Shown here in pieces: positions 12,731-35,484 of a stretch of 64,000 nucleotides of DNA. The translations under genes were made by a program, and so were the position numbers. The notes beneath the pieces are model-generated. The model ran no database searches. It was given only the letters and a program-made list of their open reading frames with translations, and was not told the origin of the DNA. Positions within the stretch are counted from its first letter, which is position 1. Each line of letters starts with the position of its first letter. The stretch comes from Candidatus Wildermuthbacteria bacterium (GTDB lineage Bacteria > Patescibacteriota > Minisyncoccia > Minisyncoccales > CAVTZN01): NCBI GenBank assembly GCA_963739285.1, contig CAVTZN010000002.1:1134-65133 (forward strand). Reading direction: 5' to 3'.

Positions 12731-13982
12731 ATGGATATTAAGGAATTTACATCAGCCATTTCTCAAATAGCCGAGGAAAAGGGAATACCTTCTGAAAAGG
12801 TTATTGAGACCATTGAAATGGCCATTGCCGCGGCTTACAAAAAAGATTACGGAGAAAAAGGTCAGGTCATCAGGGCCAAACTTGATTCCGAAAGCGGCGA
12901 GGTAAAATTTTGGCAAGTAAAATTGGTAGTTAACGCCTCAATGATTTTTTCCGAAGAAGAATTAGAAAAAATGAAAGAGAAAAAGATTGAAGAAGGGCCT
13001 TCCTTCGAGAGGGCTGAGGAGGGCAAAGAGAAAGTCCGTTTTAATCCAGAAAGGCACATCATGTTAAATGAGGCTAAAAAGATAAAGCCCAAAATTAAAG
13101 CTGGCGAAGAATTAGAAATCCTTCTGGAAACCCACAAAGATTATGGCCGGATTGCCGCCCAGACTGCCAAACAAGTTATTTTACAAAGGATTCGAGAAGC
13201 GGAGAGAGAAACAATTCTTTCTGAATTTAAAGCGAAAGAAGGAGAAATTGTTTCGGGCATAGTTCAGAGGGTAGAGGGAGGAAATGTTTTTTTGGATATT
13301 GGCAAGACAGTCGGAATATTGCCGAGAGAAGAACAGGTCCAAGGGGAATTTTATCGAATGGGACAGAGACTCAAAGTTTATCTTTTGAAAGTGGAAGATT
13401 CTTCCAAAGGGTCCGGTGATTTTTCTATCAAGAGTCTATCCCAAAATAATTTCTAAACTTTTTGAATTAGAAGTCCCGGAAATTGCCCAAGGGCAAGTGG
13501 TGATAAAATCAATTGCCAGGGAGGCGGGCTCAAGGTCAAAAATCGCTGTTACCTCTCTGTCAGAAAGCGTTGACCCGATAGGTTCAATGGTCGGTCAAAA
13601 GGGAACAAGGGTGGCGGCAGTCATTAATGAACTGGGCGGAGAAAAAATAGACATTATCGAATGGGCAGAGGATTCTGAAAGGTATCTGGCCAATAGTTTG
13701 TCTCCGGCCAAAGTTTTAGAAGTGAAAATCGAACCAAAAAACAAGGCCGTGGTTATTGTCCCCGAAGACCAGCTGTCTTTGGCCATTGGTAAAGAGGGCC
13801 AGAACGTCAGATTGGCCGCCAAATTAACCGGCTGGAAAATTGATGTCAGGGGCCCGGCAGCCGAGGAAACAGCAGAAGTTAAAGAAGCAGAGGAGGCGGA
13901 AGAGAAAGTGGAAAAAGAAGAAAAAAAGGGAAAGACCCTCCTCCGAAGCTGCGGAGGGCAAGGAGGAAAAAGAAAAAACTAA
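12731..13982 (+). CDS. nusA: transcription termination/antitermination factor NusA, +1 frameshift at about 13417-13425 (aaaggg run)
   Basis: The N-terminal domain and S1 are in ORF 12731-13456. KGPVIFLSRVYPKIISKLFELEVPEI plus the KH domains are in ORF 13416-13982. Confidence 0.9.
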
Positions 13983-14054
13983 AAAAAAGACAAAGAAAGA
14001 GAAAAAGACAAAGTCGACCCCGAACTAAAGATTTTAATTATATTTTTTAAAATT

Positions 14055-15999
14055 ATGTTCTATCTCCCCATTATTATTTCTCTCTTTACTTTAATTTTTA
14101 CTTTTTTTCTGATTCAAAAAATCAAAAAAGCCCCGACTGGGACCGGAGAAGCTCTCAAAATCTCTCAGGCCATCAGAGAAGGAGCTCTTTCTTATTTAAA
14201 AAGGCAGTATAAAGCCATTGGCTTAGTTGCCCTGATTATTTTTTTCCTTCTTGGAATAGCCCTGGGCTGGAAAATTGCTTTCGGGTTTTTAATTGGAGCT
14301 TCAGCCTCGGGCGTATCGGGCTTCATCGGGATGATGGTTTCCACGCAGGCTAACCTTAGGGTAGCCGAAGCCGCCAAAAAAGGATTAAAGAGCGCCTTGT
14401 CCTTGTCTTTCCAGGGAGGAGCGGTGACCGGTCTTTTAGTTGGGGCTCTCGGACTTCTTTCTATTTCTCTTTTTTATCTTTTGACCCATGATTTAAAAGG
14501 TTTGGTGGCGTTGGGTTTCGGCGGTTCTTTAATTTCGGTTTTTGCCAGATTGGGCGGAGGAATTTTTACCAAAGCCGCTGATGTTGGCGCGGATTTAGTT
14601 GGCAAGATGGAAAAAGGAATTCCGGAAGATGACCCGCGTAACCCCGCGGTTATTGCCGACCAGGTTGGTGATAATGTCGGCGATTGCGCCGGTATGGCGG
14701 CTGATCTTTTTGAAACTTACGTTGTCACTTTGGTCGCCGGAATGCTCTTGGGAAGTTTGATTTTTCCGACCATTAAGGAAGCGATTTTGCTGCCTTTAAT
14801 GTTGGGATCAATTGCTCTTTTGGCTTCAATCTTGGCCACTTTCTTTGTCAGGCTAAGAGGAGAAAACATTATCGGCGCTCTTTATAAAGGACTGGGAGCG
14901 GCGGCCATTATTTCGGCAATCGGTTTTTATCCCGGTAATTAAGGAGCTGGGGAAAAATTTAACCGATTCTCCGTTCTCTCTTTATCTCTGCGCCATAATC
15001 GGCCTTTTGATAGCCACCGGCATCTTTTTAATTACAGAATACTTCACCTCTAAAAAACACCAGCCGGTTCAATCAATTGTTAAGGCCTCAACCAGCGGCC
15101 ACGCTACTAATATCATTGCTGGTTTGGCTGTCGGCATGAAGTCAACTGCTTTGCCCATAATTCTTATTTGCCTGGGAATTTTATTTAGCTTCTGGCTGGC
15201 CGGTCTCTATGGACTTGTCATTGCCGCCTGTTCAATGCTTTCTTTGGTGGGCATAATTATTGCCTTGGATTCTTACGGTCCGATTACTGATAACGCCTCA
15301 GGCATTGTTGAAATGTCAGGCCAGGGAGAGGAAGTGAGAAAAGTCACTGACTCCTTGGATGCTATTGGCAATACCACTAAAGCCGTGACCAAAGGTTATG
15401 CCATTGCTTCAGCCGGTTTGGCTGCCTTAGTTCTTTTCTCTGCCTATACTCAGGAGATTATTGGCTTGGGTGGGAAAATTCAATTTCTTTTGGAGGATCC
15501 CAGAGTTTTAGTCGGCCTATTTATTGGAGGATTATTGCCTTATTTCTTTGCCTCCTTGGCCATGGAGGCGGTTGGTAAGACCGCCGCCAAAGTAGTTGAC
15601 GAAGTGAGAAGGCAGTTTCGGGAAATTGCGGGAATAATGGAGGGCACGGCTTTGCCGAAATACGGCCTCTGCGTTGATATTGTGACCAAGGCAGCAATTA
15701 AAAAAATGATAATTCCGGCCTTAATTCCGGTGATTACCCCGATTTTGGTTGGCTTTATTTTAGGACCGGAAGCTTTGGGCGGTCTTTTGGTTGGCTCGAT
15801 TGTTACCGGTCTTTTTATTGCTATTTCCATGACTTCAGGGGGAGCGGCTTGGGACAATGCCAAAAAATACATTGAGGAAGGAAATTTGGGAGGTAAAGGA
15901 AGTTTCGCCCATCAGGCAGCCGTGACTGGAGACACGGTCGGCGACCCTTACAAAGATACAGCCGGACCGGCGATTAATCCGATGATTAAAGGTACTTAA
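14055..15999 (+). CDS. hppA: membrane-bound proton/sodium-translocating pyrophosphatase, frameshift near 14925-14940
   Basis: [33 protein letters not shown], and [11 protein letters not shown]...[21 protein letters not shown]. Confidence 0.9.
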
Positions 16000-16051
16000 T
16001 ATTGTGGCATTGTTAATTGTTGGTTTCTTGGTGTAAATAAAAGCACCGATG

Positions 16052-16702
16052 TTAATCGGTGCTTAATCTGAGCCCAAAAAGTTCTGCTCTTTTTTTAAAC
16101 TTTTCTTTGTTTTCATCTTCCCAAGGGAGATATTGGAGATTTTCCGGGCTTCTCAATCCGTAAAGTAATAGATCGATTACTTCTTTTGATGGATTACCGA
16201 GCTTGATCACTGCCCCTCTTCTTATCGGAAAAATCTGGCCAGTTACCAAGGTTGGCACATTGGGATAATAAACATTTATCAAAGTAAATGAAGCTTTCTC
16301 TTTGTTTAATTTAACTTTTTCCTCCGAGAGTATCCAGCCATAAGAGGGGCAGGTAGGCGAAAATAAAAAGAGACAGGGGGTAAGATTAAATAGTCTGTCG
16401 AGAGTTATCATTTTCCCCTCTCCTTTTCTGAAGAATATTCCCAAAATTGGAACTCTCGAAAGAAAATCCCCGACAACTGTTTTCTTGAGGATTACACCAG
16501 TTAGATAAAGCACTATTATCCCCAATATTATTCCAAATCCTGGATATACAAATTGGGCAGGCAAAAAAAGATTTAATACACTCTTTCCAATCTCTTCAAG
16601 CTTACTAAAAACAACAACAAGCACAGCGATTATAATTACCATGGGCAGCCAAATAACTAGGCCTGAAAACAGATATCCAAATTGATTTTTAACGAACTTC
16701 AT
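16052..16702 (-). CDS. DUF502-family membrane protein
   Basis: Two N-terminal TM helices, FLSRVPILGIFF, and YYPNVPTLVTGQIFPIRRGAVIKL. Confidence 0.55.
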   Translation of the reverse strand: MKFVKNQFGYLFSGLVIWLPMVIIIAVLVVVFSKLEEIGKSVLNLFLPAQFVYPGFGIILGIIVLYLTGVILKKTVVGDFLSRVPILGIFFRKGEGKMITLDRLFNLTPCLFLFSPTCPSYGWILSEEKVKLNKEKASFTLINVYYPNVPTLVTGQIFPIRRGAVIKLGNPSKEVIDLLLYGLRSPENLQYLPWEDENKEKFKKRAELFGLRLSTD

Positions 16703-16749
16703 CTTATACCTCCTGATTTTTTGATTAGCATTCTTTTAAGAAAAAGTCA

Positions 16750-17972
16750 ATGAGACATACAATTCAAAAATTGCCAAAATCTCAGGTTGAGATTTTTTTT
16801 GAAATTCCGGCCGAGGAATTTAAAGATTATTTTGACGAAGCTGTTTTGAATTTGGGCAAAGATCTTGAATTTGAAGGATTCCGTAAGGGCAAGGCGCCAA
16901 AAGAAATTGTTGAAAAAGAATTAAATCCTGGCAAAATTTTGGAAGAAGCCGCCAATTTGGCGGCAAGAAAAAGTTATATTAAGGTAGTTTTGGAAGATAA
17001 AATTGAAGCGATTGGAAAACCAGAAATTCAGGTGACAAAACTTGCTAAAGGAAATCCATTGGAATTCAAGGCCAAGGTTGCGATAATTCCCGAAATGGAT
17101 TTACCTGATTATAAAAACATTGCTTCAAAAATTAAACCAAAAGAAGTTTTTGTTGAAGAAAAAGAAGTTGAAGAAGCGATAAGCTTTTTTACAAAAATCC
17201 CGGGCTAAACTTTCAGCCAAAAACTACTGCCTCTGAAATCGGAGATTTCCTGGAGATTTCTTTTCAGTCTCCCCAAATTGAAGAAGGAAAATCTCAGAAA
17301 GATTCTTTTATTTTGGGTCAAGGCCATTTTATCCCTGGCTTTGAAGAAAACCTCACGGGCTTGGGTGCAGGGGCAGAAAAAGAATTCTCTTTAACTTTTC
17401 CAGAAAATCATCTTCAAAAGAATTTAGCCGGCAAACCAGTTGATTTTAAAGTTAAAATTATCTCGGTCAAAAAAATCGAATTGCCGGAGATTAACGACAA
17501 TTGGGTAAAATCACTGGGGAATTTCGAAAATTTAGAAGGTTTAAAGAAAAACCTCCGAGAAGGAATTAAGGCAGAAAAAAACGAGGAGGAGAGGCAGAGA
17601 AATCGAACTGAGATTTTAGAAAAAATTTCCGAAGAAACTTCTTTGGAAATTCCTGATATTTTAATTGATTTTGAAAAAGAGAGAATGGTTGAAGAACTGA
17701 AAGCGAGTCTTCAGAACCAATTTCAGATGAGCTTTATTGATTATTTAACAAAAATTAAAAAGACGGAGGAGGAACTAAAAGAATCTTTTTCGCCAGAAGC
17801 GGAAAAAAGAGTGAAAAACTTTCTCATTTTGAGAGAAATTGCGAAAAGAGAGAATGTTCCGGTTTCAGAAAAGGAAATTGAAGAAAAAATAAACGAAGTT
17901 TTTAAGAATTACCCAGGAGCTGAAAAAGCCCCAAAGGAGGTTGACCTTAGAGAAATTAAAAGAGTATTATGA
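16750..17972 (+). CDS. tig: trigger factor, frameshifted between 17200 and 17320
   Basis: The N-terminal ribosome-binding domain (FEGFRKGKAPKEIVEK) is in ORF 1. The PPIase-like and C-terminal domains are in ORF 2. tig-clpP synteny is conserved. Confidence 0.85.
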
Positions 17973-18017
17973 AGGAGTAATCAGAAACGAAAAAGTATTT
18001 CAATTACTTGAAAATTT

Positions 18018-18603
18018 ATGAACCTTATCCCCACAGTTATAGAAAAATCACAATACGGCGAACGCGCTTACGATATTTATTCACGCCTTTTGAAAGATAG
18101 AATTATTTTTTTGGCTAGCGTAATTACTGATCAAGTTGCTAATTCTGTCATTGCCCAGATGTTACACTTGGCTTCCAAAGACCCAAACAAGGACATTCAG
18201 ATTTATATTAATTCACCTGGCGGTTCGGTGACAGCCGGAATGGCAATTTACGACACCATGCAATACGTGAAGCCGGATATTTCAACTGTCTGCATCGGAT
18301 TGGCCGGTTCCATGGGAGCCACCATTTTGGCGGCTGGCGCCAAAGGCAAAAGATTCGCCCTGCCCAATTCTGAAATTTTGCTTCATCAGGTAATGGGTGA
18401 GGCTGGCGGTCAGGCCATAGAAATTGAAATTACGGCAAAACAAATTATTAAAATTAAAGATAAGCTAAATAAAATTTTAGCCAAACACACCGGTCAGCCC
18501 TTAGAGAAGGTGGAGAAAGATACCGACCGTGACTTTTACTTATCAGTCTGAGGAAGCCAAAACCTACGGCATTATCGACGAGGTAATTAAAACAAAAGAA
18601 TAA
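18018..18603 (+). CDS. clpP: ATP-dependent Clp protease proteolytic subunit; single-base frameshift near 18545
   Basis: [29 protein letters not shown] and GLAGSMGA. The C-terminus (S)[17 protein letters not shown] continues in the next frame. Confidence 0.9.
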
Positions 18604-18671: not shown

Positions 18672-18975
18672 ACCCCCACACCTAATCAGCATAAGATAAT
18701 CTCATGTATTTCTTTTATATTCTGAAAAGCAAGAAATCAAGAAAATTATACTTAGGATATACGAATGATCTTCGAAAAAGACTTAAAGAACATAATCAAG
18801 GATTGTCAAAAGCCACAAAACCATATATTCCCTGGCAAATCGTATATTACGAAGCTTATCTTTCAAAAGAAGAGGCCATAAAAAGAGAAAACAACCTTAA
18901 ACTGCGAGCAAATGCCTGGAATCAACTGAGACTAAGAATCAAAAAGAGTATTCAATGTTGATTAGGTGTGGGGGT
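18672..18975 (+). mobile_element. GIY-YIG ORF cassette bounded by perfect 17-bp inverted repeats
   Basis: ACCCCCACACCTAATCA at 18672-18688 is the exact reverse complement of TGATTAGGTGTGGGGGT at 18959-18975. The right repeat overlaps the ORF stop codon. Confidence 0.45.
18704..18961 (+). CDS. GIY-YIG nuclease-domain protein (UPF0213/YhbQ-like)
   Basis: FFYILKSKKSRKLYLGYTNDLRKRLKEHNQG, the GIY-(x10)-YIG type motif. Confidence 0.75.
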   Translation: MYFFYILKSKKSRKLYLGYTNDLRKRLKEHNQGLSKATKPYIPWQIVYYEAYLSKEEAIKRENNLKLRANAWNQLRLRIKKSIQC

Positions 18976-19002
18976 TGACAAATCTTGAGAAAGGAGTATA
19001 AT
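18975..19002 (+). promoter_or_regulatory. near-consensus sigma70-type promoter
   Basis: TTGACA (18975-18980), a 16-nt spacer, then TATAAT (18997-19002), about 85 nt upstream of the ORF at 19089. Confidence 0.5.
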
Positions 19003-19088: not shown

Positions 19089-19640
19089 ATGAAAACGAAA
19101 AGGATTGCGATTATAGCCTTGATGATGGTGGTGGTGATTGTGATGCCATTGTTCGCCGGTTGCATGGTCCCCCAAAACGTCCAGGACGAGCTGGATCAGC
19201 TACGTGCCGATAAGAAGCAGTGGACGGAGGTGGATAGGCCAGCACTGGAAAAAGAGATTGCTGCGCTGAAAAATGTCCCGGTACTAGCCCCAAGCCCCCA
19301 AGACCCGACTTACTCAGACTTGATGGATTGGATTGCCCGGGACCAGACAAATACCCTTACATTTACCCCGATGGGGTATTACGCAACGACACTTTTTGCC
19401 TTTGCGCGGATGGCAGGAATTAAACTCTATATGGTCAGGGTAACGATTGTCGGTCCACCTCAACAATACTGGTACTTCTGCGCTTCCCACACTACTACTA
19501 CCGGTAAAGAGTTGGTTTATCTCCTTCCCTCTGAAGACAGGGAGATAACGCTCGTGCCCGGGAAGAAGCTTCATGAACTTATCGGCGGTCCCGAGTACGT
19601 TCAGGATGATACAATCCTAAAGATTGAGTTATTTGAGTGA
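19089..19640 (+). CDS. putative lipoprotein, no recognised domain, in a GC-rich island
   Basis: Signal peptide with a lipobox (PLFAGC) and a GGAGAAAAAA RBS-like upstream sequence. GC is markedly higher than in the flanks. Confidence 0.6.
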   Translation: MKTKRIAIIALMMVVVIVMPLFAGCMVPQNVQDELDQLRADKKQWTEVDRPALEKEIAALKNVPVLAPSPQDPTYSDLMDWIARDQTNTLTFTPMGYYATTLFAFARMAGIKLYMVRVTIVGPPQQYWYFCASHTTTTGKELVYLLPSEDREITLVPGKKLHELIGGPEYVQDDTILKIELFE

Positions 19641-19785: not shown

Positions 19786-20900
19786 ATGAAAGAAAAAAAT
19801 AATAATTTCCCATCTGATTATCAGTCAGTTTGTCGAGTTGAGAATTTTTTCGAAAATCTTGTCCAAAAAATTATTGGGAAATTGACTTTGGAAGAGGATA
19901 AAAAGCCCTCTTTTATTTATGCTCACCCTGCTTTAATTTTTTTAACTACCACCCGTTGTAATTTCAATTGTCCCCATTGTTTAAGGCAAATTGTTGATGG
20001 TGGCAAAACAATAATAAAAGATATGCCCATTTCAGTTTTCGAAACAGCATTGAGGGAGGGTAAAAAGATTGGGCTGAGAAGAGCTTCCTTCACCGGCGGC
20101 GAAACTATTTTGCATCCCCAATTCAGGGAATTAGTCGAATTAACTAAAAAATACAATTATAATTTTAGGATAGTAAGCAACGGCTGGTTCTATAAAGATT
20201 ATTTACCAATTATTAATTCTGCCAGAAAAAATTTTGATGTAATTTGTTTCAGTTTAGACGGAGCAACGGCTGAAGTTCACGATAGTTTTAGAAATAAACC
20301 AGGTTCTTTTAAAAGAATAATTGAAGCAATAAAGCTCTATAGAAAAAATCAGATACCCGTAACATTGCAGACCTGTCTTAATAAAAAAAATTACGACCAA
20401 ATTGAGGGAATTGTGAATCTTTGTTTAAAATTTGGAATAGAAAGTTTAAGCTTTATGATAGAAATACCCATTTCAAGGTCAGGGTTAACAAATCAGGAAC
20501 TTTCTGAGATCGTTCAAAAAATGGCATATCTCAGAGAAAAAGTAAAAAATAGAGTTTTTATTGCGCCCTGCGCCTCATTTTTTCAGAAAGAGGCAATATT
20601 AGAAAGGAAATTAATTTCTGCCCCGTTTTAGGGATACGGACTAGAACCATATATTGATCCGAAGAAGGGGGAATGATTTTTTGCTGTGATATTTTTCAAA
20701 AATGTAGCCAAAAACCCTTGATTCAAAAAGAGGGTTTTGAAAAATCTTACAGAATATGTTTAGAGACAGCAAACCAGATTAAAAAACAACGGCTTTATGA
20801 CATCTTCAATAATCCGGAAGGAGTAATTGGCACCTGCGATTACTGCAATAAACACGTTGAAAAAGCCCTTAAAATGGCAAGGAAAATAGAAAAATTATAA
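19786..20900 (+). CDS. radical SAM enzyme with C-terminal SPASM-like Cys-rich domain (several frameshifts at 20580-20675)
   Basis: CNFNCPHC (CxxxCxxC), then GGETILHP. The C-terminal Cys motifs are spread over three frames (NFCPVLG, YIDPKKGEMIFCCDIFQKC, GTCDYCNKH). Confidence 0.75.
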
Positions 20901-20912
20901 AGCGTAAGAATT

Positions 20913-22445
20913 ATGCTAGAAGATAAAAATAATTCTTTAGATAAATATAATTATCAACCAGTTTGCCGCGCCGGGGATTTTTTTGAGAATCTTGCCGAAC
21001 AAGAAAGATTAGAACTGGAAAAATATCCATCCCTCCCTTCGCTTTTTAGCTTAATGCTCAATAAAGTTTATTCTAATTTCTTGAAATTCATTGAAAATAT
21101 CATTGGGGTTAAACTTTATACTTCTATTCAGGATTTCCCCTTCCTCGAATATTTCCCTGAGAACGAAAAAATTAGTGGCTAATTTTCTTCAAAAAAAAAT
21201 TATTAATCAAATATTGAGATTGCCGCGAATTTATTCTGACGAACCTTACATTATCCAGTATCGGGCCGAAGAGCCAACCGTCTTGCCAGATATTTCTTCT
21301 TATTCTGATGGCAACGGCAGTTTTTCAAAATATAGCGCTGGAGCTGATTTTAATGAGGAGAGATCTTTAATGAAAACCGTAGGTGAGGGATTAGAAAGAT
21401 TTTGCCTTTGTGTATACAGAGAAAAACATTTTTTGCTTTCGACTTTTGATAAGATTTCCCAAAAAGCCCTTAGCCCTCTTTCTTTTGCCGGTATTTCTCC
21501 TTCTCAGCGCCAAGCCAATCCAAGATTAAAAATAGATGAAAAATCTGTTTTTCGCTGGGTTGAGGGTTTTTCTCTTTATGATAAGAAAAAAGTATTTATT
21601 CCCGCTCAACTTGTTTATGTTGGATATAAATATCATCCTCAAGAGCCGATGATTCGGGAGCAAATCAGCACTGGCGCAGCAGCGGCTGATTCTTTTAAAG
21701 GGGCCCTCTATAAAGGAATTTGCGAGGCGGTTGAAAGAGATGCTTTTATGATTACCTATTTCAATAAACTTTCTCCCAGCAATAATAGAACTCGAGACAA
21801 TCGATGATGAGATTATTCAAAGGTTATTGGCGATGTTTAAACGTTACAATTTAGAAATTTATCTAATTGATATAACAACTGATATTGCCATCCCTTCAAT
21901 GATGGCAGCGATAATAGATCGAACCGGCATAGGTCAGAGTATCTGTATCAGCACCAGAACTGATTTAGATATTATCCAAGCCATTCGGGGTGCTATTTTT
22001 GAAGCCATCCAAGGAAGGATTGAGTTCCGGGGAGTACCGTTCTCTTCTCCCGATATGGTAAAGAAGAGGAAAGGAATTAAAATCCGTTCCCTCTCGGATA
22101 AAAACCTTTACTGATAGATATCTTTTTTGGAGTTCTTTAGATATGATTAAAAAAATTGAATTTCTTTTTCAAGGTCCGAAGAGAAAAATTAATATAGAAG
22201 AACAAAATAGATATAAAGATTTATCCGATAAAGAAAAACTAAAAATAGCCCTAAGAATTCTTGAAAAAAGAAAAATTGATATTTATGGAATTGACATTAC
22301 TCTTCCCCAGATAAAAGAAGAAGGAATTTATGTGGCCAAAGTTATTTCTCCCCAACTTCAGCCCCTTTATTTAGATGAAGGAATAAGGCATTGTTGGGGC
22401 GAGCGCCTTTTTAATGTTCCGGTAAAATTAGGTTATCGCAGATAA
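20913..22445 (+). CDS. YcaO-domain cyclodehydratase-like protein (four ORF fragments)
   Basis: VGEGLERFCL, ISTGAAAADSFKGALYKGICEAVERDAF, and IDITTDIAIPSMMAAI. The fragments are collinear on one strand. Confidence 0.8.
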
Positions 22446-22499
22446 ACCCCTATCTGAAAACGAGATTAAATTCTTTACCGCACCCCTTCCTTTAAAATT

Positions 22500-23251
22500 A
22501 TGAATTACTCTATGGCTAAAATTTTTCATCAACTGACAAAGGAAAAATATCAAGAGGGTTGGGACAAACCAACAAGCCCTCCGATTTTACCTCCGGAATG
22601 GCTAACAATTTATTTTAAAGAATACCCTCGTTTGCCAAAAGTTTTACTGCCGAAACCCAAGAAATTAGATTTTTCTATCGGAGAATCCTTAATTAAAAGA
22701 AAATCAGAAAGAGAATTTAATGGGAAGCCGATAAATCTTAAAGATTTAAGCCAACTCCTTTTTTATTCAGCCGGCATTATTGAAAAAAAAGAAAATGATT
22801 GGAACAAAACCCATCGAGCTTATCCTTCAGGAGGAGGCCGTTTTCCTTTGGAGATTTATCTTTTTAATCTCCAAACAAGCAATGAATTGAAAGAAGGGAT
22901 TTATCATTACAATGTCAAAGAGCATTAGTTTAGAGAAATTATTGAAGAAAAGAATTTAAGAAAAGAAATTTATCCCGAAGCTATTTGGCAGGAGATGATA
23001 CTTAAAAGCCCCCATAGTTTTAGTTATTTCAGCTGTTTTTGAGAGAACATATGATAAAATATAAAGAGAGAGGATACAGGTATATTCTTTTTGAGGCCGG
23101 GCATTTAGGGCAAAATATTTATTTGGTCAGCAAGGCCCTCGGCCTTAAATGTTGCGCTATTGGTGGTTTTGATGATGATAAATTTCATGAACTTTTGGAT
23201 ATTGACGGTGACAACGAAGCGGTTCTTTATGCCTTTGCTATGGGGTATTGA
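22500..23251 (+). CDS. SagB-type (nitroreductase-fold, FMN) dehydrogenase (at least 3 frameshifts at 22925-23060)
   Basis: RAYPSGGGRFPLEIYL, GIYHY, APIVLVISAVFERTY (shifted frame), and GYRYILFEAGHLGQNIYLVSKALGLKCCAIGGFDD. Confidence 0.8.
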
Positions 23252-23323
23252 CAGACGTCCTTGATATAATAAAATAAAGATAGGTCGAATATGATTTTAA
23301 ATACGGACTTAGTATTAAAAATA

Positions 23324-23749
23324 TGAAAAAGAAAATTTTATTTATTATTTTAGGCTTAATTTTAGCTGGTTTAATATTCTGTGGTGGAGTTTATTTTGAC
23401 GAGACTTATTTTAGCCAGAAAATTCACCGTCGCAGAAGCTCAATCCGATTTTTATCATTACTTTTCTACTACCTTGATTGATGGGTTTGGAATAGTAAAA
23501 GAGATTGATGTTAATAACTCCATTATTACTTTATCTTCTCAAATTTCTGAAGATAAAACCCTGAAAGTTAATTTTAATGAAAATAGCCGATTTTATCAGT
23601 TTTTGGCCTGGGAAGAAAATGGAAACATAAAAGCCGAGCCAATTGAATTAAAGGCCTTAAAAATTGATGACAAGGTTTATTTTGCCTGCCGGCCGAACCC
23701 AGAAGGCAACTTTATCCTTCTTTGGCTAAATGTCGCAAGCAAAGAGTAA
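23324..23749 (+). CDS. small secreted/anchored hypothetical protein (signal peptide in a different frame from the body)
   Basis: The ATG at 23324 gives MKKKILFIILGLILAGLIFCGGVYF. The body is ORF 23381-23749. Confidence 0.45.
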
Positions 23750-23831
23750 ATAGCTAAAAATTATTTTTTTAAAAAACATGTTTCCCGTTATCATTTCTTC
23801 ATTATTAAATAAAGAGGGAAGGGGTTCCAAA

Positions 23832-24335
23832 ATGGTTTACCCTTTTAAACTATTAGCCCTTTTACTTTTAGTAATTATCTTGTCTTTTTTCTGGTTGGGC
23901 GGGAAGATTTTTAAATCAGAAAAATTAAGTAAATCATTTTCCAAAATTTCTACTTCAGGCGATGTCTATGCCCAAGGTAGCTCTGGTATGTGCTGCAGCT
24001 GTAGTGGTGGTTCTGGTGGTGGTTCTGGTGGTGGTTCTGGTGGTGGTTCTGGTGGTGGTTCTGGTGGTGGTTCTGGTGGTGGTTCTGGTGTCGGTGGTTA
24101 CGCAGGTGGCATTGGTTACGGTGGCGTTGGTGCTGGTCCTGGCGTTGGTTATGCGTGTTCTGGCGCTGTTGGTACTTGCAGTGCTGTTGGCGTTGCTGGT
24201 GCTGCTGGTGCTGCTGGTGCTGGTGCTGCTGGTGCTGGTGCTGCTGGTGCTGGTGCTGCTGGTGCTGGTGGCTGTAGTAGTTGCTCTTGTTCCTGCAATT
24301 GTACTCCTCCCTCGGTAGATATCGAGGTGAAATAA
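23832..24335 (+). CDS. Gly/Ser/Cys/Ala-rich repeat protein with N-terminal TM helix; candidate azole-RiPP precursor
   Basis: GAGGGAAGGGG RBS before the ATG at 23832. The sequence has a TM helix (FKLLALLLLVIILSFFWLGG), GMCCSCSGG, (SGGG)x6, a GYGG/GAG region, (AGAGAA)n, and GGCSSCSCSCNCTPP. Confidence 0.65.
   Translation: MVYPFKLLALLLLVIILSFFWLGGKIFKSEKLSKSFSKISTSGDVYAQGSSGMCCSCSGGSGGGSGGGSGGGSGGGSGGGSGGGSGVGGYAGGIGYGGVGAGPGVGYACSGAVGTCSAVGVAGAAGAAGAGAAGAGAAGAGAAGAGGCSSCSCSCNCTPPSVDIEVK
24003..24089 (+). repeat. 12-nt tandem repeat TCTGGTGGTGGT (SGGG), about 6-7 units
   Basis: Read directly; TCT recurs at 24012, 24024, 24036, 24048, 24060, 24072 and 24084. Confidence 0.9.
24193..24270 (+). 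repeat. GCT/GGT tandem repeat, 18-nt period (GAGAAG)
   Basis: gctggtgctgctggtgctggt recurs across 24193-24270. Confidence 0.85.
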
Positions 24336-24347
24336 TTTTAAACAAAA

Positions 24348-25325
24348 GTGTTCAAATCAAAAAGTAAAAAAATAATAGTTTTTGCATTAGCCCTATTTTT
24401 AGTTTTAGGGCTATTTCAGTTAACTTTTGCTTTGACTAAAAGTGTAGGCGAAACTTTTACCATTACGGCAACCTGCTCAGATTCTGATGGAAATCTCTCA
24501 AATTGTAAAATAACCTCTCCCTGTTCTAATAGTTGTTCGGCATCCGGTTCTTCTGGAACTTGTTCTTGTCAATTTACTTGTGCCACTGCAGGAACTTATG
24601 ATGCTTGTGGCACAGCAACCGATACAGGGGGACTCACAGGTACTAAATGTACGCCGGGTGCCATTATTTGTAAATCAAACAATCCTCCCACAGCCACCAA
24701 TCTCTATCGCGAGAATCCTGATTGGTGCGTCAATCCTTTCCAATTCAGATTAAACTGGACTTTTTCTGACCCTGACGGCGATACCCAATATGCCAAATGG
24801 ATTCAGGTAGACGATAACCTCAATTTTACCTCAATTGACCATGATTCAGGCAAGGTGGAAAACAATGAAATCCCTAGCTACACCACCTTTATGACCGATG
24901 GCAAAGGAGGCGTTCTCCAATTCAACAAGACCTATTACTGGAGAGTCAAGGTCTGGGATGCCAAAGGCGGAGAATCTGGCTGGATAACTTCTTCCCAAAC
25001 CCTGATTACTCCCGGACATGCCTATCCTGACCCTGACTTTACTTTTGAACCCTCCATGCCAAGAGAACTCCAGACAGTTCAATTCACTGACCAATCCTAT
25101 TCCCCTGTCAGCATAGCCAGATGGTATTGGACCTTCCAAGACGGCAGCCCTTCAACCTCAACCCAACAAAACCCGACAGATATTTTTGAAACTCCTGGCA
25201 ATAAGACGGTAATTCTGACTGTCTGGGATCCAGATAATTATTCCTGTTCGGGAGGAGAAAAAGGAGTGCAGGTAGTCCCGGTTGGCATTTTTGCTCCCAC
25301 TTGGCGAGAGATTATTCCGTGGTAA
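24348..25325 (+). CDS. secreted protein with Cys/Ser/Thr-rich N-terminal module, a beta-rich middle domain and a C-terminal PKD-like domain
   Basis: Signal peptide, SPCSNSCSASGSSGTCSCQFTCATAG, and a PKD-like WYWTFQDGSPSTSTQQNPTDIFETPGNKTVILTVWD. Confidence 0.6.
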   Translation: MFKSKSKKIIVFALALFLVLGLFQLTFALTKSVGETFTITATCSDSDGNLSNCKITSPCSNSCSASGSSGTCSCQFTCATAGTYDACGTATDTGGLTGTKCTPGAIICKSNNPPTATNLYRENPDWCVNPFQFRLNWTFSDPDGDTQYAKWIQVDDNLNFTSIDHDSGKVENNEIPSYTTFMTDGKGGVLQFNKTYYWRVKVWDAKGGESGWITSSQTLITPGHAYPDPDFTFEPSMPRELQTVQFTDQSYSPVSIARWYWTFQDGSPSTSTQQNPTDIFETPGNKTVILTVWDPDNYSCSGGEKGVQVVPVGIFAPTWREIIPW

Positions 25326-30715: not shown

Positions 30716-30719
30716 GAAG

Positions 30720-30790
30720 TCGGGGTGCTGGGAGTTGAACCCAGGCCGCATGCTCCCAAAGCATACATACTACCGTTATACGACACCCCG
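30720..30790 (-). tRNA. tRNA-Pro(UGG) copy 1
   Basis: CGGGGTG/CACCCCG acceptor, TATGC-TTTGGGA-GCATG, T loop TTCAACT. Confidence 0.8.
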
Positions 30791-30884: not shown

Positions 30885-30888
30885 GAAG

Positions 30889-30959
30889 TCGGGGTATCCA
30901 GATTTGAACTGGAACTAAATCCTCCCAAAGGACTCGTGCTGCCGTTACACTATACCCCG
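30889..30959 (-). tRNA. tRNA-Pro(UGG) copy 2 (diverged isodecoder)
   Basis: CGGGGTA/TACCCCG acceptor, AGTCC-TTTGGGA-GGATT, TCCAG-TTCAAAT-CTGGA. Confidence 0.8.
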
Positions 30960-32455: not shown

Positions 32456-34204
32456 ATGAGAGTAGAGCCGCAACAATTAAAGGCTTTCTTATTAGATGCT
32501 GGTTTGGTGGAGGAAAGCCAGTTTGAAAAAACCCTTGAGAAAGCGGAAAAAACTAAGCAAAAAGTTGCTGATGTTTTGGTTTCCGAAGGGATAATCAACC
32601 AGGAAGAGATGATTAAGCTTGAGGCCTATATTTTAGGCATTCCTTTTGTCAATTTGGAAAAAGAAGTTGTCTCTCCTGACATTTTAAAAATTATCCCGGA
32701 GCCGATTGCCAGAAGCCACAATATCGTTTCTTTTAGAAAGAGGGGTCAGGACTTGGAAGTGGCGATGCTTGACCCTGAAGATTTGCAAACAATCGGATTC
32801 ATTAAGAAAAAAACAGACCTGAAAATTCTGCCGCGATTAACTACTTCCCAAGGCATCAAAAATGTTTTGCAACAATACCAAAAAACCCTTGAAGCTGAAT
32901 TCGGAGAAATTATCAAAGGGGAAGCAAGGACCATAATTCCAATAAAAGATGAAGAGGTCGTTGAAGGCAAGGAGGAATTAGAGAAAGTAGCCGAAGAATT
33001 GCCGATAATTCGAATTGTTGATACTCTGATTCGCCACGCCATTTTGCAAAAATCCTCCGACATTCATATAGAACCCACGGAGAAAGAAGTTTTGGTGAGA
33101 TATAGAATTGATGGAATTTTGAGAGACGCTATGATTTTGCCGAAACAAGTCAAATCGGGAATCGTGGCCAGGATTAAAGTATTGTCCAATTTAAAACTTG
33201 ACGAACATCGGCTTCCCCAAGACGGTCGTTTCAAAATTGAAAGCGAAGATTACAAATATTCTGTCCGAGTTTCGGTCTTGCCGGTTTTTGAAGGAGAAAA
33301 AATTGTCCTCCGGCTTCTGCCGGAAGGAGCCAGGGCCTACACTTTAGAGGGGATAGGACTGAGGGGAGAGGCCTTGGAAGAGATTCACCATAATCTAAGA
33401 AAACCGGTGGGGATGATCTTGGTGACAGGTCCAACCGGTTGCGGTAAAACCACAACCCTTTATTCAATGATGGAAATTTTAAATAATCCGGGAGTGAATA
33501 TTTCTACTGTTGAAGATCCAATCGAATACAGGATGCCGAGAGTCAATCAGACTCAGGTTAATCCCAAAATTGGCCTGACTTTTGCTTCTGGTCTCAGGTC
33601 TCTGGTCAGGCAAGACCCCGATATTTTAATGGTTGGTGAAATCCGAGATAATGAGACAGCCAGTTTGGCCATTAACGCTTCCTTAACCGGTCACCTTGTT
33701 CTATCAACTTTGCATACCAATTCAGCTGCCGGCGCCTTCCCCCGCCTGATTGATATGAAAGTGGAGCCATTTTTAATCTCCTCGACGGTCAATTGCGTTT
33801 TGGCCCAAAGACTGGTTAGAAAATTATGCCTGGAAAAAGAAAAATATAAATTAAAGCCGTCAGAATTAAAAAATTTGGAAAAATATTGCGACCTAAACAA
33901 AATCTTGGAAGTTTTGAGGGGAGAAAAATTAATTACCAAAAAGGAAGATTTGAACGATGTTTATTTTTATCGGCCCAAGCCATCGAAGGAATCTCCGGAA
34001 GGGTATCAGGGCCGAATCGGTATTTTCGAGGTTCTGTCGGTAACGGAATCAATAAAAGAATTAATTACCAAAGGGGCGACTTCTGATGAAATCCAGGAAC
34101 GTGCCAAAAAAGAAGGCATGAGGACAATGATTGAAGACGGTTTTATCAAGGCTGCCCAGGGAATAACCTCAATCGAGGAAGTGTTAAGGGTAATTGTCGA
34201 ATAA
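32456..34204 (+). CDS. pilB: type IV pilus assembly ATPase PilB (GspE family)
   Basis: N-terminal T2SSE_N domain, Walker A GPTGCGKTTT, and DPDILMVGEIRD. Confidence 0.9.
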   Translation: MRVEPQQLKAFLLDAGLVEESQFEKTLEKAEKTKQKVADVLVSEGIINQEEMIKLEAYILGIPFVNLEKEVVSPDILKIIPEPIARSHNIVSFRKRGQDLEVAMLDPEDLQTIGFIKKKTDLKILPRLTTSQGIKNVLQQYQKTLEAEFGEIIKGEARTIIPIKDEEVVEGKEELEKVAEELPIIRIVDTLIRHAILQKSSDIHIEPTEKEVLVRYRIDGILRDAMILPKQVKSGIVARIKVLSNLKLDEHRLPQDGRFKIESEDYKYSVRVSVLPVFEGEKIVLRLLPEGARAYTLEGIGLRGEALEEIHHNLRKPVGMILVTGPTGCGKTTTLYSMMEILNNPGVNISTVEDPIEYRMPRVNQTQVNPKIGLTFASGLRSLVRQDPDILMVGEIRDNETASLAINASLTGHLVLSTLHTNSAAGAFPRLIDMKVEPFLISSTVNCVLAQRLVRKLCLEKEKYKLKPSELKNLEKYCDLNKILEVLRGEKLITKKEDLNDVYFYRPKPSKESPEGYQGRIGIFEVLSVTESIKELITKGATSDEIQERAKKEGMRTMIEDGFIKAAQGITSIEEVLRVIVE

Positions 34205-34253
34205 GTCCCCCTGTCTTTAAAAAGAAAACCCGATTTCACCTTTCTTAAAATTA

Positions 34254-35477
34254 ATGCCACGCTATTCTTATTTTGCCAAATCTTTAACGGGAGAAACACG
34301 AGAAGGAATTCTAGAAGCAAAAGATGAGCATGAATTAGCCAAAAACCTTCACCAAGAAGGTTATATTTTGATTAAAGCAGATTTGGAAAAAGAAAAGTCC
34401 CTGACCAAAAGAGACATTTTGGAGGTTTTTGGCCAGTTCCGGAAAGTTCCCCTGAGAGAAAAAATATTTTTTACCAGAAATTTAAGAATAATGGTCGGAG
34501 CCGGGGTTTCCTTACCTCGAGCCATAAGAACCCTAGCCAACCAATCAAAAAATAAAAAATTCCAGCAAGTTCTTTCCAAAATAGAAGAAGACGTAACGCG
34601 CGGGCAGAATCTTTCCGAAGCTTTCTCCAAGCATTCTCAGGTCTTTCCTGAAGTATTCCGCAGCATGATAAAAGTCGGCGAAGAATCAGGGACACTGGAA
34701 GATGTTCTGGAGAATTTAACCTGCCAGATGGAAAGAGAGGGAGACTTGAGATCAAAAATCAAGGGGGCGATGATTTATCCGGCGGTGATATTGTGCGTGA
34801 TGGTCCTGATCGGAGCATTGATGATGGTTATGGTCGTTCCTAAATTAGCAGCGGTTTTTGAAGATTTGAAAGCCGAATTACCCTTTACCACAAAAATAAT
34901 AATTGGATTGAGCGAATCTTTAGAGAGATTTTGGCCGTTTTTATTTTTGATTATTATTGCTGTCATAATTCTTTCCAGGCTAATTCCGAAGAGTCAAAAA
35001 ATAAAGAAAAGCCTGGATATGCTTTTCTTGAAATTACCGATAATCTCCCCTCTGGTTAAAAAAATTAACGCTGCCTCAACTTCAAGAACCCTGTCTGCCC
35101 TGATTGCCTCCGGCGTGCCGATTGTCAGGTCCTTGGAAATTGTCGCCGGTACCCTGGGCAACTTTTATTTCCGAGAGGCTATTAAAAAGGCGACTGATGA
35201 AGTTCAGAAAGGAGGCAAACTTTCTCAGGCCCTGGAGGATTACCAAGATCTTTACCCTTCAATTATGATCCAAATGATTGCCGTGGGAGAAGAAACAGGA
35301 GAAACCTCGCAAATTCTGGCGAAATTGGCAGCTTTTTACGAAGAAGAGGTTTCTAATGTTACCAAAAACTTATCTTCAGTAATTGAACCGTTATTGATGG
35401 TGGTCATCGGAGCGGCGGTGGGGTTTTTTGCCATTTCAATGATCCAGCCGATGTATTCTATGATGGGAGCGATGTAA
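34254..35477 (+). CDS. pilC: type IV pilus platform protein PilC (GspF family)
   Basis: Two GspF repeats and 3 TM segments. Confidence 0.85.
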   Translation: MPRYSYFAKSLTGETREGILEAKDEHELAKNLHQEGYILIKADLEKEKSLTKRDILEVFGQFRKVPLREKIFFTRNLRIMVGAGVSLPRAIRTLANQSKNKKFQQVLSKIEEDVTRGQNLSEAFSKHSQVFPEVFRSMIKVGEESGTLEDVLENLTCQMEREGDLRSKIKGAMIYPAVILCVMVLIGALMMVMVVPKLAAVFEDLKAELPFTTKIIIGLSESLERFWPFLFLIIIAVIILSRLIPKSQKIKKSLDMLFLKLPIISPLVKKINAASTSRTLSALIASGVPIVRSLEIVAGTLGNFYFREAIKKATDEVQKGGKLSQALEDYQDLYPSIMIQMIAVGEETGETSQILAKLAAFYEEEVSNVTKNLSSVIEPLLMVVIGAAVGFFAISMIQPMYSMMGAM

Positions 35478-35484
35478 ATATAAA

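Follow-up and report, generated by a model that had tools for sequence, protein, structure and literature searches.

Gene content of the locus

The window is a 64,000-nucleotide stretch of a Candidatus Wildermuthbacteria contig, and its segment 19786–25325 contains six closely spaced genes, all on the + strand (Table 1). As the initial annotation had described, three of these form a tightly packed, same-strand set of enzyme genes. The wider neighbourhood that it outlined is likewise composed of the genes described, but the module also takes in a lipoprotein gene further upstream. The enzyme transcription unit may begin at a promoter match in front of this lipoprotein gene, and the small transmembrane (TM), precursor and Ig genes may be served by a promoter of their own, a second match lying just upstream of the small TM gene.

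Table 1. Genes and promoter matches at the locus

Feature	Position	Strand	Basis
Sigma-70-like promoter match, TTGACA-16-TATAAT, 12/12	18975..19002	+	Consensus match only
Lipoprotein gene, 183 aa, first gene of conserved module	19089–19640	+	Homology to L004, L001, L086 and L093 genes
Radical SAM enzyme	19786–20900	+	CNFNCPHC; PF04055 74.8 bits (cutoff 29.5)
YcaO, SagD/TOMM-type cyclodehydratase	20913–22495	+	TIGR03604 237 (cutoff 219.25); PF02624 188.5
SagB-type FMN dehydrogenase (azoline oxidase)	22500–23251	+	TIGR03605 149.9 (cutoff 78.4)
Sigma-70-like promoter match, TTGACA-16-TAAAAT, 11/12	23248..23275	+	Consensus match only
Small TM protein	23323–23749	+	HMM matches to homologs
Cys/Gly/Ser/Ala-rich ORF, putative precursor/substrate, 185 aa	23778–24335	+	Precursor family
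PKD/Ig protein, secreted, 325 aa	24348–25325	+	PKD_4, Ig_Rha78A_N

Frameshifts in the enzyme genes

As assembled, the radical SAM, YcaO and SagB genes are each broken, none forming a single open reading frame. By frameshift-aware alignment to intact homologs, we located about 13 one-base indels: three in the radical SAM gene (at about 20593, 20643 and 20659), five in the YcaO gene (at about 21120–21160, 21775, 22072, 22443 and 22465), four in the SagB gene (at 22926, 22942, 23001 and 23050) and one in the small TM gene (near 23401). Nonsense codons or an alternative code were considered for the in-frame stops (TGA at about 20655 and TAG at 22926) and rejected, because compensating indel pairs explain both.

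Such damage might mean that the enzyme genes are true pseudogenes and the locus the decaying remnant of a former azole cluster, in which only the surface-protein genes (precursor-like and Ig) are still expressed. The 13 indels indeed fall in four upstream genes, with none in the downstream precursor, RNase Y and HisKA genes; the enzyme genes carry about 3.3/kb, around twice as many as the housekeeping genes upstream (about 1.6/kb); and a relative (L093) retains the lipoprotein, small TM and precursor genes without YcaO and SagB between them. However, the same splitting affects NusA (two shifts), H+-PPase, tig, ClpP, DHH/DHHA1, RluA and LeuRS (at least four pieces) of the window, among which LeuRS, NusA, ClpP and H+-PPase are essential single-copy genes. 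Insertions and deletions are mixed, including compensating pairs 16–20 nt apart that keep the frame. The enzyme genes contain neither larger deletions nor nonsense substitutions, and the identity of their products to intact orthologs is even along the whole length. We therefore regard decay as unlikely and, because NusA, H+-PPase, ClpP and LeuRS are broken in the same manner, read the frameshifts as window-wide assembly noise rather than as a property of the locus. Correction of the frameshifts, which the initial annotation had proposed, was carried out with the homologs, and the repaired proteins exceed the PF04055, TIGR03604 and TIGR03605 cutoffs, in agreement with the identities first given to them.

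The three enzymes

The repaired radical SAM enzyme comprises about 370 residues and has a Cys-rich C-terminal tail; the first ~75 nt of its gene are a duplicate of the start of the YcaO coding sequence. The tail had been taken for a SPASM-like domain, an assignment that did not hold: no SPASM model matched it, not even when the intact ortholog was used and matches of E ≤ 1 were allowed, and family members match Radical_SAM and Fer4_12 only. Judged by these matches, the protein is not demonstrably a SPASM enzyme. Its core is closest to the SPASM/twitch maturases (SkfB, AlbA, PqqE and WgkB), with NCBIfam matches to WgkB (98 bits) and ScmE/F and with SkfB as the best PDB match, and its tail contains additional Cys residues besides a CX14GX4C-like element. 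Unlike these maturases, however, it matches neither PF13186 nor TIGR04085, and every equivalog score is far under its cutoff; these matches assign no reaction to it.

The YcaO protein, estimated initially at about 510 residues, has about 526 after repair and ends in ...LNSLPHPFL; the accompanying expectation that it has no E1-like domain proved correct, for a fused as well as for a separate one. It is 50–60% identical to intact counterparts of Ca. Nealsonbacteria and other CPR bins, and the ExxER ATP/Mg motifs (GEGLERF and CEAVERD) and the C-terminal PHPF are invariant in 23 homologs. An AF2 model of an ortholog (P0002; pLDDT 89.8) had the azoline-forming heterocyclases LynD, MusD and TruD as its best PDB matches. 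The protein also carries a helical N-terminal extension of ~145 residues, which by itself matches no PDB fold (best E 2.8) and in which neither RRE nor E1-like similarity was detected. The repaired SagB protein, with about 249 residues, has as its closest solved relatives McbC and CyaGox, a thiazoline oxidase of cyanobactin synthesis.

The Cys-rich putative precursor and its neighbours

Downstream of the enzymes, a repeat ORF of 167 residues had been placed with its start at 23832; the ORF instead starts at 23778 and encodes 185 residues, the added N-terminus being kept in all homologs. Residues 1–65 (nt 23778–23972) constitute a leader, of which the N-terminal ~48 residues are strongly conserved; it opens with MFPVIISSLLN..SK, continues into a hydrophobic helix and ends at an AxA-like junction (VYA|Q). 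The core, rich in Cys, Gly, Ser and Ala, includes a CSSCSCSCNC block and two perfect tandem repeats (12-nt × 7.2 at 24004–24090 and 15-nt × 5.1 at 24194–24270), and it is followed by a conserved tail, TPPSVDIEVK (24303–24332). The family amounts to only 10 clusters among 1.84 billion representative proteins, all of which have in common the leader and its invariant junction Ala, a Cys-rich core that is hypervariable, and a tail of the form PPSVxIxV; the core repeats differ in copy number even between near-identical strains (L004 and L005). The predicted topology and export route are uncertain, since both flanks of the hydrophobic segment are net positive and the AxA site lies ~20 residues past the helix, a spacing not typical of signal peptidase I.

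The other three non-enzymatic genes also encode extracytoplasmic proteins. The lipoprotein has a signal peptide with an LFAGC lipobox, a coiled-coil and a C-terminal domain; a Pfam search with the window's protein returned no match, and among its homologs (L004 9274–9918, L001 2025–2756, L086 3593–4201 and L093 6881–7411) the L086 counterpart alone has a weak precomputed match, to DUF8429. The small TM protein (about 140 residues) is signal-anchored and beta-rich, with only faint CusF/DUF1344-like matches, and is encoded in almost all module copies. The Ig/PKD protein has a conserved Cys/Ser-rich module (CSDSDGNLSNC..SPCSNSCSASGSSGTCSCQFTC) along with one Ig_Rha78A_N-like and one PKD domain, and its C-terminus (..WREIIPW) recurs in the L095 homolog.

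Conservation of the module in relatives

In CPR relatives, the module consists of the lipoprotein, optional radical SAM enzyme(s), the N-extended YcaO, SagB, the small TM protein, the precursor and the Ig protein, and intact copies keep the order from YcaO to the Ig protein. Loci of Ca. Nealsonbacteria (L004–L006 and L008) show full synteny with the window, from NusA through the T2SSE gene; L086 has the same order, radical SAM gene included, L001 has two tandem modules, and L094 and L095 are further examples. Homologous clusters of at least six divergent lineages keep the Cys-rich neighbour, and neither this result nor the family tests refute the original proposal in the way that the initial annotation had foreseen. 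Distant N-extended YcaO loci (L097, L034, L024 and L010) encode analogous, non-homologous precursors with a TM segment, an AxA site and a Cys-rich core, and in the wider YcaO clade short precursors lie beside YcaO-SagB in CPR and DPANN bins. Within about 10 kb of the locus we found no gene for an E1-like, Ocin-ThiF/ThiF or TfuA protein, a dedicated protease or an ABC exporter, which confirms the absences first reported.

The Cys-rich membrane protein could be an ordinary surface protein, adhesin-like or structural and rich in metal sites or disulfides, whose linkage to the enzymes in streamlined genomes is coincidental. It occurs without the maturases in L093 and is therefore not strictly dependent on YcaO and SagB, some cores have apparently foldable non-repetitive stretches (P0241 and P0242), and the three adjoining extracytoplasmic gene products would suit such a role. 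We nevertheless hold this to be very improbable: in eight of nine examined N-extended YcaO loci, across divergent lineages, the position just downstream is taken by a member of the leader family or by a comparable Cys-rich ORF with a TM anchor, and repeats of the CxCxC and CTTTT types are classic azole-forming cores. The leader family also stands beside other maturase sets (four radical SAM enzymes in L088/L090; radical SAM enzymes and a prenyltransferase-like gene in L094), and such sharing of one leader family among differing maturase sets is typical of RiPP precursors.

Alternatively, the enzymes might modify another substrate, either the Cys/Ser-rich module of the Ig/PKD protein (CSDSDGNLSNC..SCSASGSSGTCSCQFTC) or an unlinked protein, the 185-residue ORF being a mere neighbour. 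The Ig protein follows the precursor in most loci, some YcaOs act on large proteins such as McrA, and the YcaO has a weak secondary match to TIGR03266 (87.9 bits). That score is, however, far under the cutoff of 365; the Ig-protein module is conserved, not hypervariable, and lies behind a classical cleavable signal peptide; and the Ig protein is absent from L094 and L097 despite their precursor-like ORFs. It is the precursor family that shows the leader, core and hypervariability expected of RiPP substrates, so another substrate seems quite unlikely and the product of the Cys-rich ORF is the likely substrate of the module.

A proposed pathway

The family tests and the conserved module uphold the original proposal of an azole-type (YcaO plus SagB), RiPP-like locus in a CPR genome. 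We consider it probable that a Parcubacteria-like CPR bacterium here encodes a TOMM/LAP-type system for azole installation, functional rather than decayed, which would work as follows. The ATP-dependent YcaO would cyclodehydrate Cys, and possibly Ser/Thr, residues of the precursor core to azolines, which the SagB flavoprotein would oxidise to azoles; where present, the radical SAM enzyme would add a further modification of unspecified type. As a guess, the conserved leader might be bound by the N-terminal extension of YcaO, replacing an E1-like/RRE partner. The leader's own hydrophobic helix and invariant AxA-type site suggest insertion or export of the modified product via the general Sec/YidC route and its trimming by a signal-peptidase-like activity, in which case neither an ABC exporter nor a leader protease would be needed, which would explain their absence. 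Outside the cell, the product may act in concert with the lipoprotein, the small beta-rich membrane protein and the Ig/PKD surface protein, which are conserved alongside it.

Comparison with known systems

Like the LAP/TOMM clusters for microcin B17 (McbBCD), streptolysin S (SagBCD), plantazolicin, klebsazolicin and phazolicin, the locus combines a SagD-type YcaO and a SagB/McbC-type FMN dehydrogenase with a gene for a Gly/Ser/Cys-rich core, whose GGSG repeats and CSC motifs resemble microcin B17 in composition. It differs from them in having the YcaO extension in place of an E1-like C or ThiF-like F protein; otherwise it contains the minimal set of LAP genes that PMC7136475 defines. It also differs in its precursors, which in this family are 100–240 residues long and encoded downstream of the enzymes, with a hydrophobic leader helix and a conserved C-terminal follower motif; in having no immunity gene, dedicated protease or ABC exporter; and in its co-conserved extracytoplasmic proteins.

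The nearest solved YcaO domains are those of the cyanobactin heterocyclases LynD/TruD/PatD and of MusD (hmmsearch E 1e-31 to 3.5e-37; Foldseek E about 1e-26 to 1e-29), but these are ~780-residue RRE + E1-like + YcaO fusions, of which the YcaO domain alone matches. Precedents for YcaOs without an E1-like/ThiF-like partner are the stand-alone bottromycin BotC/BotCD and YcaO-TfuA thioamidation (PMC7136475). Bottromycin YcaOs, however, have no SagB dehydrogenase as partner on poly-Cys cores, and the locus differs from the thioamidation systems in having no TfuA and from McrA-type YcaOs in its TIGR03266 score.

The initial annotation overstated the novelty of the setting in calling it not the textbook context, since Sharrar et al. 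2020 (mBio, PMC7298704) had described LAP clusters from 93 CPR genomes, 110 in total, of which 89 have a nitroreductase beside YcaO. Those clusters, from Parcubacteria/Microgenomates and with predicted azole peptides, share with ours a YcaO and an adjoining nitroreductase-family dehydrogenase; in one example (Microgenomates_ANG_785), a peptidase and an 84-residue precursor lie beside YcaO. In contrast, the window's sub-family has an N-extended YcaO of 510–530 rather than 430–450 residues, a downstream TM-leader precursor family, no peptidase and frequent radical SAM partners, a combination for which we found no published description in the searchable literature. Its architecture, which joins an N-extended YcaO to a family of long, membrane-anchored precursors and to extracytoplasmic proteins conserved with them, appears undescribed. 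With the usual helper, protease and exporter genes missing, what makes the sub-family unusual is its long, membrane-anchored, Cys-rich putative substrate.

Gene layout and reading-frame interruptions

Our comparisons show that the cluster encodes a YcaO of the SagD type whose catalytic motifs are intact, a predicted SagB azoline oxidase and a co-conserved family of Cys-rich putative precursors. It is a compact run of genes on the + strand, spanning 19.0 to 25.4 kb with gaps of 6-146 nt between the genes (see the table). Two promoter pattern matches hint at two transcription units, one for the enzymes and the other for the substrate and surface proteins. The window's own copies of the lipoprotein, the small TM protein and the Cys/Gly/Ser/Ala-rich protein (the probable substrate, hereafter the precursor) had no Pfam or NCBIfam match. 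In the same databases, the small TM protein of L086, a related locus, gave faint CusF/DUF1344-like matches but nothing significant, and its lipoprotein gave a DivIC match below the cutoff (22.8 vs 28.9 bits) plus coiled-coil noise.

Coordinates of the cluster genes and of other features of the window
Feature	Position	Strand	Remark
Lipoprotein	19089-19640	+	
Radical SAM enzyme	19786-20900	+	
YcaO	20913-22495	+	
SagB-type nitroreductase	22500-23251	+	
Small signal-anchored (small TM) protein	23323-23749	+	
Cys/Gly/Ser/Ala-rich protein (precursor)	23778-24335	+	185 aa
Secreted Ig/PKD protein	24348-25325	+	325 aa
Near-consensus sigma-70-type promoter match	18975-19002		before lipoprotein gene; pattern match only
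Near-consensus sigma-70-type promoter match	23248-23275		before small TM gene; pattern match only
GIY-YIG nuclease ORF	18704-18961		85 aa
Inverted repeats	18672-18702 / 18945-18975		31 nt
TrbC/T4SS-type pilin gene	9818-10270	-	
Type IV pilus set	32456-36833		
tRNA-Pro(TGG), two copies	30719-30790 and 30888-30959	-	about 170 nt apart
DHH/DHHA1 protein ORFs	45242-46208		split at about 45.85 kb
RluA-type pseudouridine synthase	50068-50792		split at 50.07-50.79 kb
Rfam tRNA match	50735-50806	-	44.7 bits
tRNA-Ile, anticodon TAT (UAU)	51666-51741	-	
Leucyl-tRNA synthetase (LeuRS)	62580-63975		at least four pieces, 62.6-64.0 kb

All three enzyme genes are split between ORFs, with 2 pieces for the radical SAM gene, 4 for YcaO and 2 for SagB. 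Alignment of the window DNA to intact homologous proteins by a frameshift-aware dynamic program placed three one-base indels in the radical SAM gene, five in YcaO, four in SagB and one in the small TM gene. The last 20 codons of YcaO hold two of its indels, which mask the true C-terminus (...LNSLPHPFL). The TAG at 22926 in SagB is the product of a base insertion followed by a base deletion 16 nt on, and repair of both gives HSLEKLLEEKNLRK, which the L086 ortholog shares in full. In the radical SAM gene, the TGA near 20655 is likewise flanked by one insertion and one deletion; repair there gives LEPYIDPKKGGMIFCC, the L086 counterpart being EPSIDADGGMIFCC. We also considered an alternative genetic code with UGA or UAG as sense codons. 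Both in-frame stops vanish once the compensating one-base indels are modelled and are thus not nonsense codons, making such a code unnecessary.

Housekeeping genes elsewhere in the window have similar interruptions: NusA (two frameshifts), H+-PPase (two), trigger factor (about three) and ClpP (one), all at 12731-18600, and the split DHH/DHHA1, RluA-type and LeuRS genes listed in the table. A genome cannot lose NusA or LeuRS, and a mixture of insertions and deletions with local compensation is typical of a noisy consensus, such as that of an unpolished long-read assembly. Because these indispensable genes carry the same damage, and because the mixed, compensating indels fit a noisy consensus, we do not read the breaks in the enzyme genes as decay but as assembly noise. 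True decay of the enzyme genes would fit their higher indel density (about 3.3/kb vs about 1.6/kb in the upstream housekeeping genes) and the absence of indels from the window's RNase Y, HisKA and response regulator genes, and we retain it for these reasons as an alternative, but an improbable one in view of NusA, LeuRS and the local compensation. With assembly noise as the preferred reading, the window assembly appears to be unpolished, so that ORF-based annotation of CAVTZN010000002.1 will be fragmented.

The YcaO and SagB enzymes

After frameshift repair, YcaO scored 237 bits against TIGR03604 (SagD-type TOMM cyclodehydratase; curated cutoff, 219.25) and 188.5 bits against PF02624, and SagB scored 149.9 bits against TIGR03605 (cutoff, 78.4). 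These family HMM matches bear out the identities that the initial annotation had given to both proteins. By comparison, the score of YcaO against the McrA-type model TIGR03266 was 87.9 (cutoff, 365). The intact homologs of the repaired YcaO are 512-531 aa long and 50-60% identical to it over the full length, the intact orthologs showing 54-60% identity across 97-100% of the length. In an alignment of 23 sequences (the window and 22 homologs), the ATP/Mg2+ ExxER motifs E160/E163/R164 (GEGLERF) and E273/E276/R277 (CEAVERD) were invariant in all 23, as was the C-terminal PHPF, which the window sequence, PHPF(L), regained by two indel repairs. The AlphaFold model of P0002, an intact YcaO ortholog (pLDDT 89.8), found its best PDB matches in the azoline-forming heterocyclases LynD, MusD and TruD, and a sequence profile search concurred. 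CyaGox, a cyanobactin thiazoline oxidase, and McbC are among the nearest solved relatives of SagB. In almost every locus of the YcaO clade, SagB lies beside YcaO.

YcaO carries an N-terminal extension of ~145 aa, which is absent from a clade of shorter YcaOs and is predicted by AF2 to form a long helical hairpin plus a few short strands. Residues 1-145 had no Pfam or NCBIfam match at E<=1, and for an AF2 model of residues 1-146 (pLDDT 76) the best PDB match had an E of 2.8. With neither a family match nor a PDB fold, the extension is not a recognisable RRE or a remnant E1-like domain, in agreement with the earlier view that a fused E1-like domain was unlikely.

The radical SAM enzyme

The radical SAM gene encodes the CNFNCPHC motif noted previously and scored 74.8 bits against PF04055 (cutoff, 29.5), so this assignment holds. 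The family of the enzyme comprises about 40 proteins, 350-375 aa in length, whose only annotated domains are Radical_SAM and Fer4_12. The best named relatives are the peptide maturases WgkB, ScmE/F and SkfB, with scores far below the cutoffs and coverage of the core domain only; the best PDB matches (SkfB, BlsE and MoaA) also cover only the core domain.

The SPASM-like tail described in the initial annotation, by contrast, lacked HMM support. The window enzyme had no SPASM match (PF13186 / TIGR04085) at E<=0.01, in Pfam in full and among the best 25 of 57 NCBIfam matches, and the tail of the intact L086 enzyme had none in Pfam/NCBIfam even at E<=1. Against the SPASM pattern CX9-15GX4C ... CX2CX5CX3C ... 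C, inspection by eye of the Cys-rich tail revealed a CX14GX4C-like element, a CC and a CxxC only. With SPASM unsupported and the named relatives far below cutoff, the assignment goes no further than a radical SAM enzyme.

The first ~75 nt of the radical SAM coding sequence resemble the 5′ end of the YcaO coding sequence (~75-80% identity; 19790-19865 vs 20920-20995), and the peptide ..Y.(S/P)VCR...FFENL is common to both N-termini; the L086 radical SAM ortholog is without this YcaO-like piece. From the sequence, it looks like a duplication that arose when the radical SAM gene was inserted upstream of YcaO.

A family of long, Cys-rich putative precursors with a hydrophobic leader helix

The precursor had been annotated as a 167-aa ORF from 23832. 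We corrected its start to 23778, since the N-terminal residues thereby added, MFPVIISSLLNKEGRGSK, are kept in all homologs. When its first 78 residues were searched exhaustively against 1.84 billion representative proteins, only 10 related clusters came up, and a metagenome scan with the precursor alignment, using a single degenerate pattern, found only two loci, one identical to L001 (a related locus). The Cys-rich neighbour is retained in homologous clusters, as a leader/core/tail family in an alignment of 11 members. The leader is conserved, about 48 aa long, with a hydrophobic helix of 19 residues, and gives way to a variable linker that ends in the invariant Ala of an AxA-like (-3,-1) site (for example VYA/Q, AYA/Q, AQA/Q or AEA/Q, the slash marking the site). 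The core, of 40-170 aa, is hypervariable and Cys-rich, featuring CSCSCSCNC, CDCDCYC or CICACYCSCACSC, or is Cys/Thr-rich, and the tail has the conserved motif (T/A)PP(S/T)VxIxV(E/K/Q). By sequence, then, the family has the anatomy of a RiPP precursor, unusually long and with a leader that holds a membrane-type helix. This helix has a net positive charge on either flank, and about 20 residues separate it from the AxA site, a layout that does not fix the topology.

The window core contains perfect tandem repeats of 12 nt (x7.2; GGSG) and 15 nt (x5.1; AAGAG), and the copy number of a GDCG repeat differs between the near-identical Nealsonbacteria strains L004 (12740-13195) and L005 (12740-13141). 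Automatic gene calling mis-frames the precursor gene in L004 and L006.

Members of the leader family also follow a run of four radical SAM genes that has an HxsD-like gene close by (L088, 15621-16088; L090, 11331-11816), and, in L093 (6881-8474), they accompany the lipoprotein and small TM protein in a locus having neither YcaO/SagB nor other enzymes. The family is therefore common to different maturase sets, and the Cys-rich protein can exist without the YcaO/SagB enzymes. The precursor HMM had no match in the loci L096 or L097. Four more distant loci with an N-extended YcaO (L097, L034, L024 and L010) encode non-homologous ORFs in which a TM helix is followed by an AxA site and a Cys-rich core.

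Conservation of the module and its chromosomal surroundings

The window is syntenic over more than 20 kb with L004-L006 (ENA metagenomes) and L008 (Ca. Nealsonbacteria RIFCSPHIGHO2_02_FULL_43_13), and is syntenic with Ca. Nealsonbacteria MHMD01000019.1. The order in L004-L006 and L008 is NusA, H+-PPase, an intervening gene, trigger factor, ClpP, an insert, lipoprotein, YcaO, SagB, small TM protein, precursor, Ig protein and RNase Y, with HisKA, response regulator and T2SSE further on; the radical SAM gene is absent there. L086 matches the window's order exactly, radical SAM included: lipoprotein, radical SAM, YcaO, SagB (with small TM protein), a 241-aa precursor and Ig protein. L001/L007 have two tandem modules, the second with a radical SAM/SPASM enzyme. 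In L094, YcaO-SagB lies among four radical SAM genes and a prenyltransferase-like gene, followed by the small TM protein in duplicate and a precursor with CTTTT repeats. L095 has a B12-radical SAM gene, YcaO, SagB, a second YcaO, the precursor and an Ig protein ending in ..WREIIPW like the window's. The neighbourhood is kept, with the radical SAM gene variable. Judged by these gene orders, the module has been maintained in divergent CPR lineages, and in the closest relatives of the window it is a fixed element of the chromosome.

The second YcaO of L095 (8317-10245) is 642 aa long, lies directly after SagB and is accompanied by the B12-binding radical SAM; it points to further YcaO reactions (amidine or thioamide) in part of the family. 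The shorter-YcaO clade (430-450 aa) has members in CPR, DPANN archaea and Nostocales, nearly always with an adjoining SagB and, upstream, short Cys-rich precursors of the classic kind.

In the window, the stretch from clpP to the cluster holds the GIY-YIG nuclease ORF, flanked on its two sides by the inverted repeats; at this position, L004-L006 have a DUF6922/AbiEii pair. The differing contents suggest an insertion hotspot.

Partner genes and other flanking features

The initial annotation had seen no E1-like/Ocin-ThiF-like protein, TfuA, leader protease or ABC exporter, and this observation stood up to our wider survey. We found no E1-like C, Ocin-ThiF-like F or ThiF protein among the cluster ORFs, the window flanks (9.8-35.5 kb) and the relatives' precomputed Pfam annotations; no TfuA in the same flanks or in the relatives; and no dedicated peptidase or ABC transporter in the cluster ORFs, these flanks and the relatives' flank annotations. 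What the window flanks do hold is a T4SS-type pilin, CCA-adding enzyme, UPF0102, two NUDIX proteins, DegT, GFO/IDH/MocA, T2SSE and T2SSF.

The type IV pilus set (T2SSE ATPase, T2SSF platform, N_methyl pilin and CarboxypepD_reg-domain proteins) lies downstream of the HisKA/response-regulator pair, and the TrbC/T4SS-type pilin gene lies upstream; surface appendage genes are thus close to the cluster. An Rfam search of the window returned tRNAs only. The two tRNA-Pro(TGG) genes lie beside a tRNA-Gly(TCC) gene, and one Rfam tRNA match, unreported by ARAGORN, overlaps the RluA-like ORFs. The window also has a tRNA-Ile with a UAU anticodon, which is uncommon in bacteria, AUA usually being read by a lysidine-modified CAU tRNA.

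A probable mechanism

CPR genomes are tiny, and the bacteria are believed to be attached to hosts in life. YcaOs of this kind use ATP to activate a backbone amide, a Cys, Ser or Thr side chain then cyclising to an azoline, which SagB-type flavoproteins oxidise to an azole (Burkhart et al. 2017, as relayed in PMC7136475). By analogy, YcaO would form azolines in the precursor and SagB would oxidise them to azoles. The conserved leader would be the recognition element, which the N-terminal hairpin of YcaO may bind. The hydrophobic helix and AxA site would let general secretion/insertion machinery and a signal-peptidase-like activity stand in for an exporter and protease, and the product would act extracellularly, alongside the lipoprotein, small beta-rich protein and Ig/PKD protein.

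As a whole, we offer the following scheme only tentatively and think it somewhat unlikely to hold in full. The product would be protein-sized and azole-decorated rather than a small diffusible toxin; the YcaO hairpin would dock the leader helix, replacing E1-like/RRE partners; and modification in the cytoplasm would precede Sec/YidC insertion by the precursor's own leader, AxA trimming, and surface display or release with the three extracytoplasmic proteins, possibly with a role in episymbiont-host contact. On this view, diversifying selection would account for the hypervariability of the cores and for the repeat changes between strains.

That an energetically costly module is conserved at a fixed chromosomal position, beside surface-protein genes, suggests that azole products matter for the CPR lifestyle (competition, adhesion or signalling). 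In enzymological terms, a SagD-type YcaO and SagB would act on membrane-helix substrates of 100-240 aa with no E1-like, ThiF or RRE partner. This would widen the rules for genome mining (RODEO, antiSMASH, RRE-Finder) and provide a compact two-enzyme azole-installing system for engineering.

Comparison with known systems

The window enzyme shares with SPASM/twitch radical SAM maturases the PF04055 core with CxxxCxxC, but not the SPASM domain. YcaO-TfuA/McrA-type systems differ from the window in having TfuA, and TIGR03266 was below cutoff here. With TOMM/LAP systems the cluster has in common a SagD-type YcaO, ExxER motifs with a proline-rich C-terminus, a SagB/McbC-type dehydrogenase and an adjacent precursor; a leader-recognition partner (E1-like C, Ocin-ThiF-like F or fused E1/RRE) is what it lacks. 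The precursor fits the TOMM/LAP plan of a leader and a Cys/Ser/Thr-rich variable core, but is atypical in its length and hydrophobic helix.

An azole locus in a CPR genome is not new, because Sharrar et al. 2020 reported 110 CPR YcaO and nitroreductase "LAP" clusters in 93 genomes, 89 of them with an adjacent nitroreductase (PMC7298704), and a 2025 survey listed YcaO BGCs in CPR again. The CPR host, at first counted as an unusual context, is therefore not unusual for YcaO/nitroreductase genes as such; the architecture of the sub-family is a different matter, as our literature search found no description of it. In particular, we could not find any description of an N-extended, partner-less SagD-type YcaO, a family of long TM-leader precursors sharing a conserved follower motif, recurrent radical SAM partners or the co-conserved extracytoplasmic proteins. 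Like the clusters of Sharrar et al. 2020, the window has a YcaO with an adjacent nitroreductase-family gene. Their published example has a short precursor beside YcaO and a peptidase, whereas the window precursor is 185 aa long, lies two genes downstream of SagB and belongs to a module with no peptidase. The advance thus concerns the architecture, not the existence of CPR YcaO/nitroreductase clusters.
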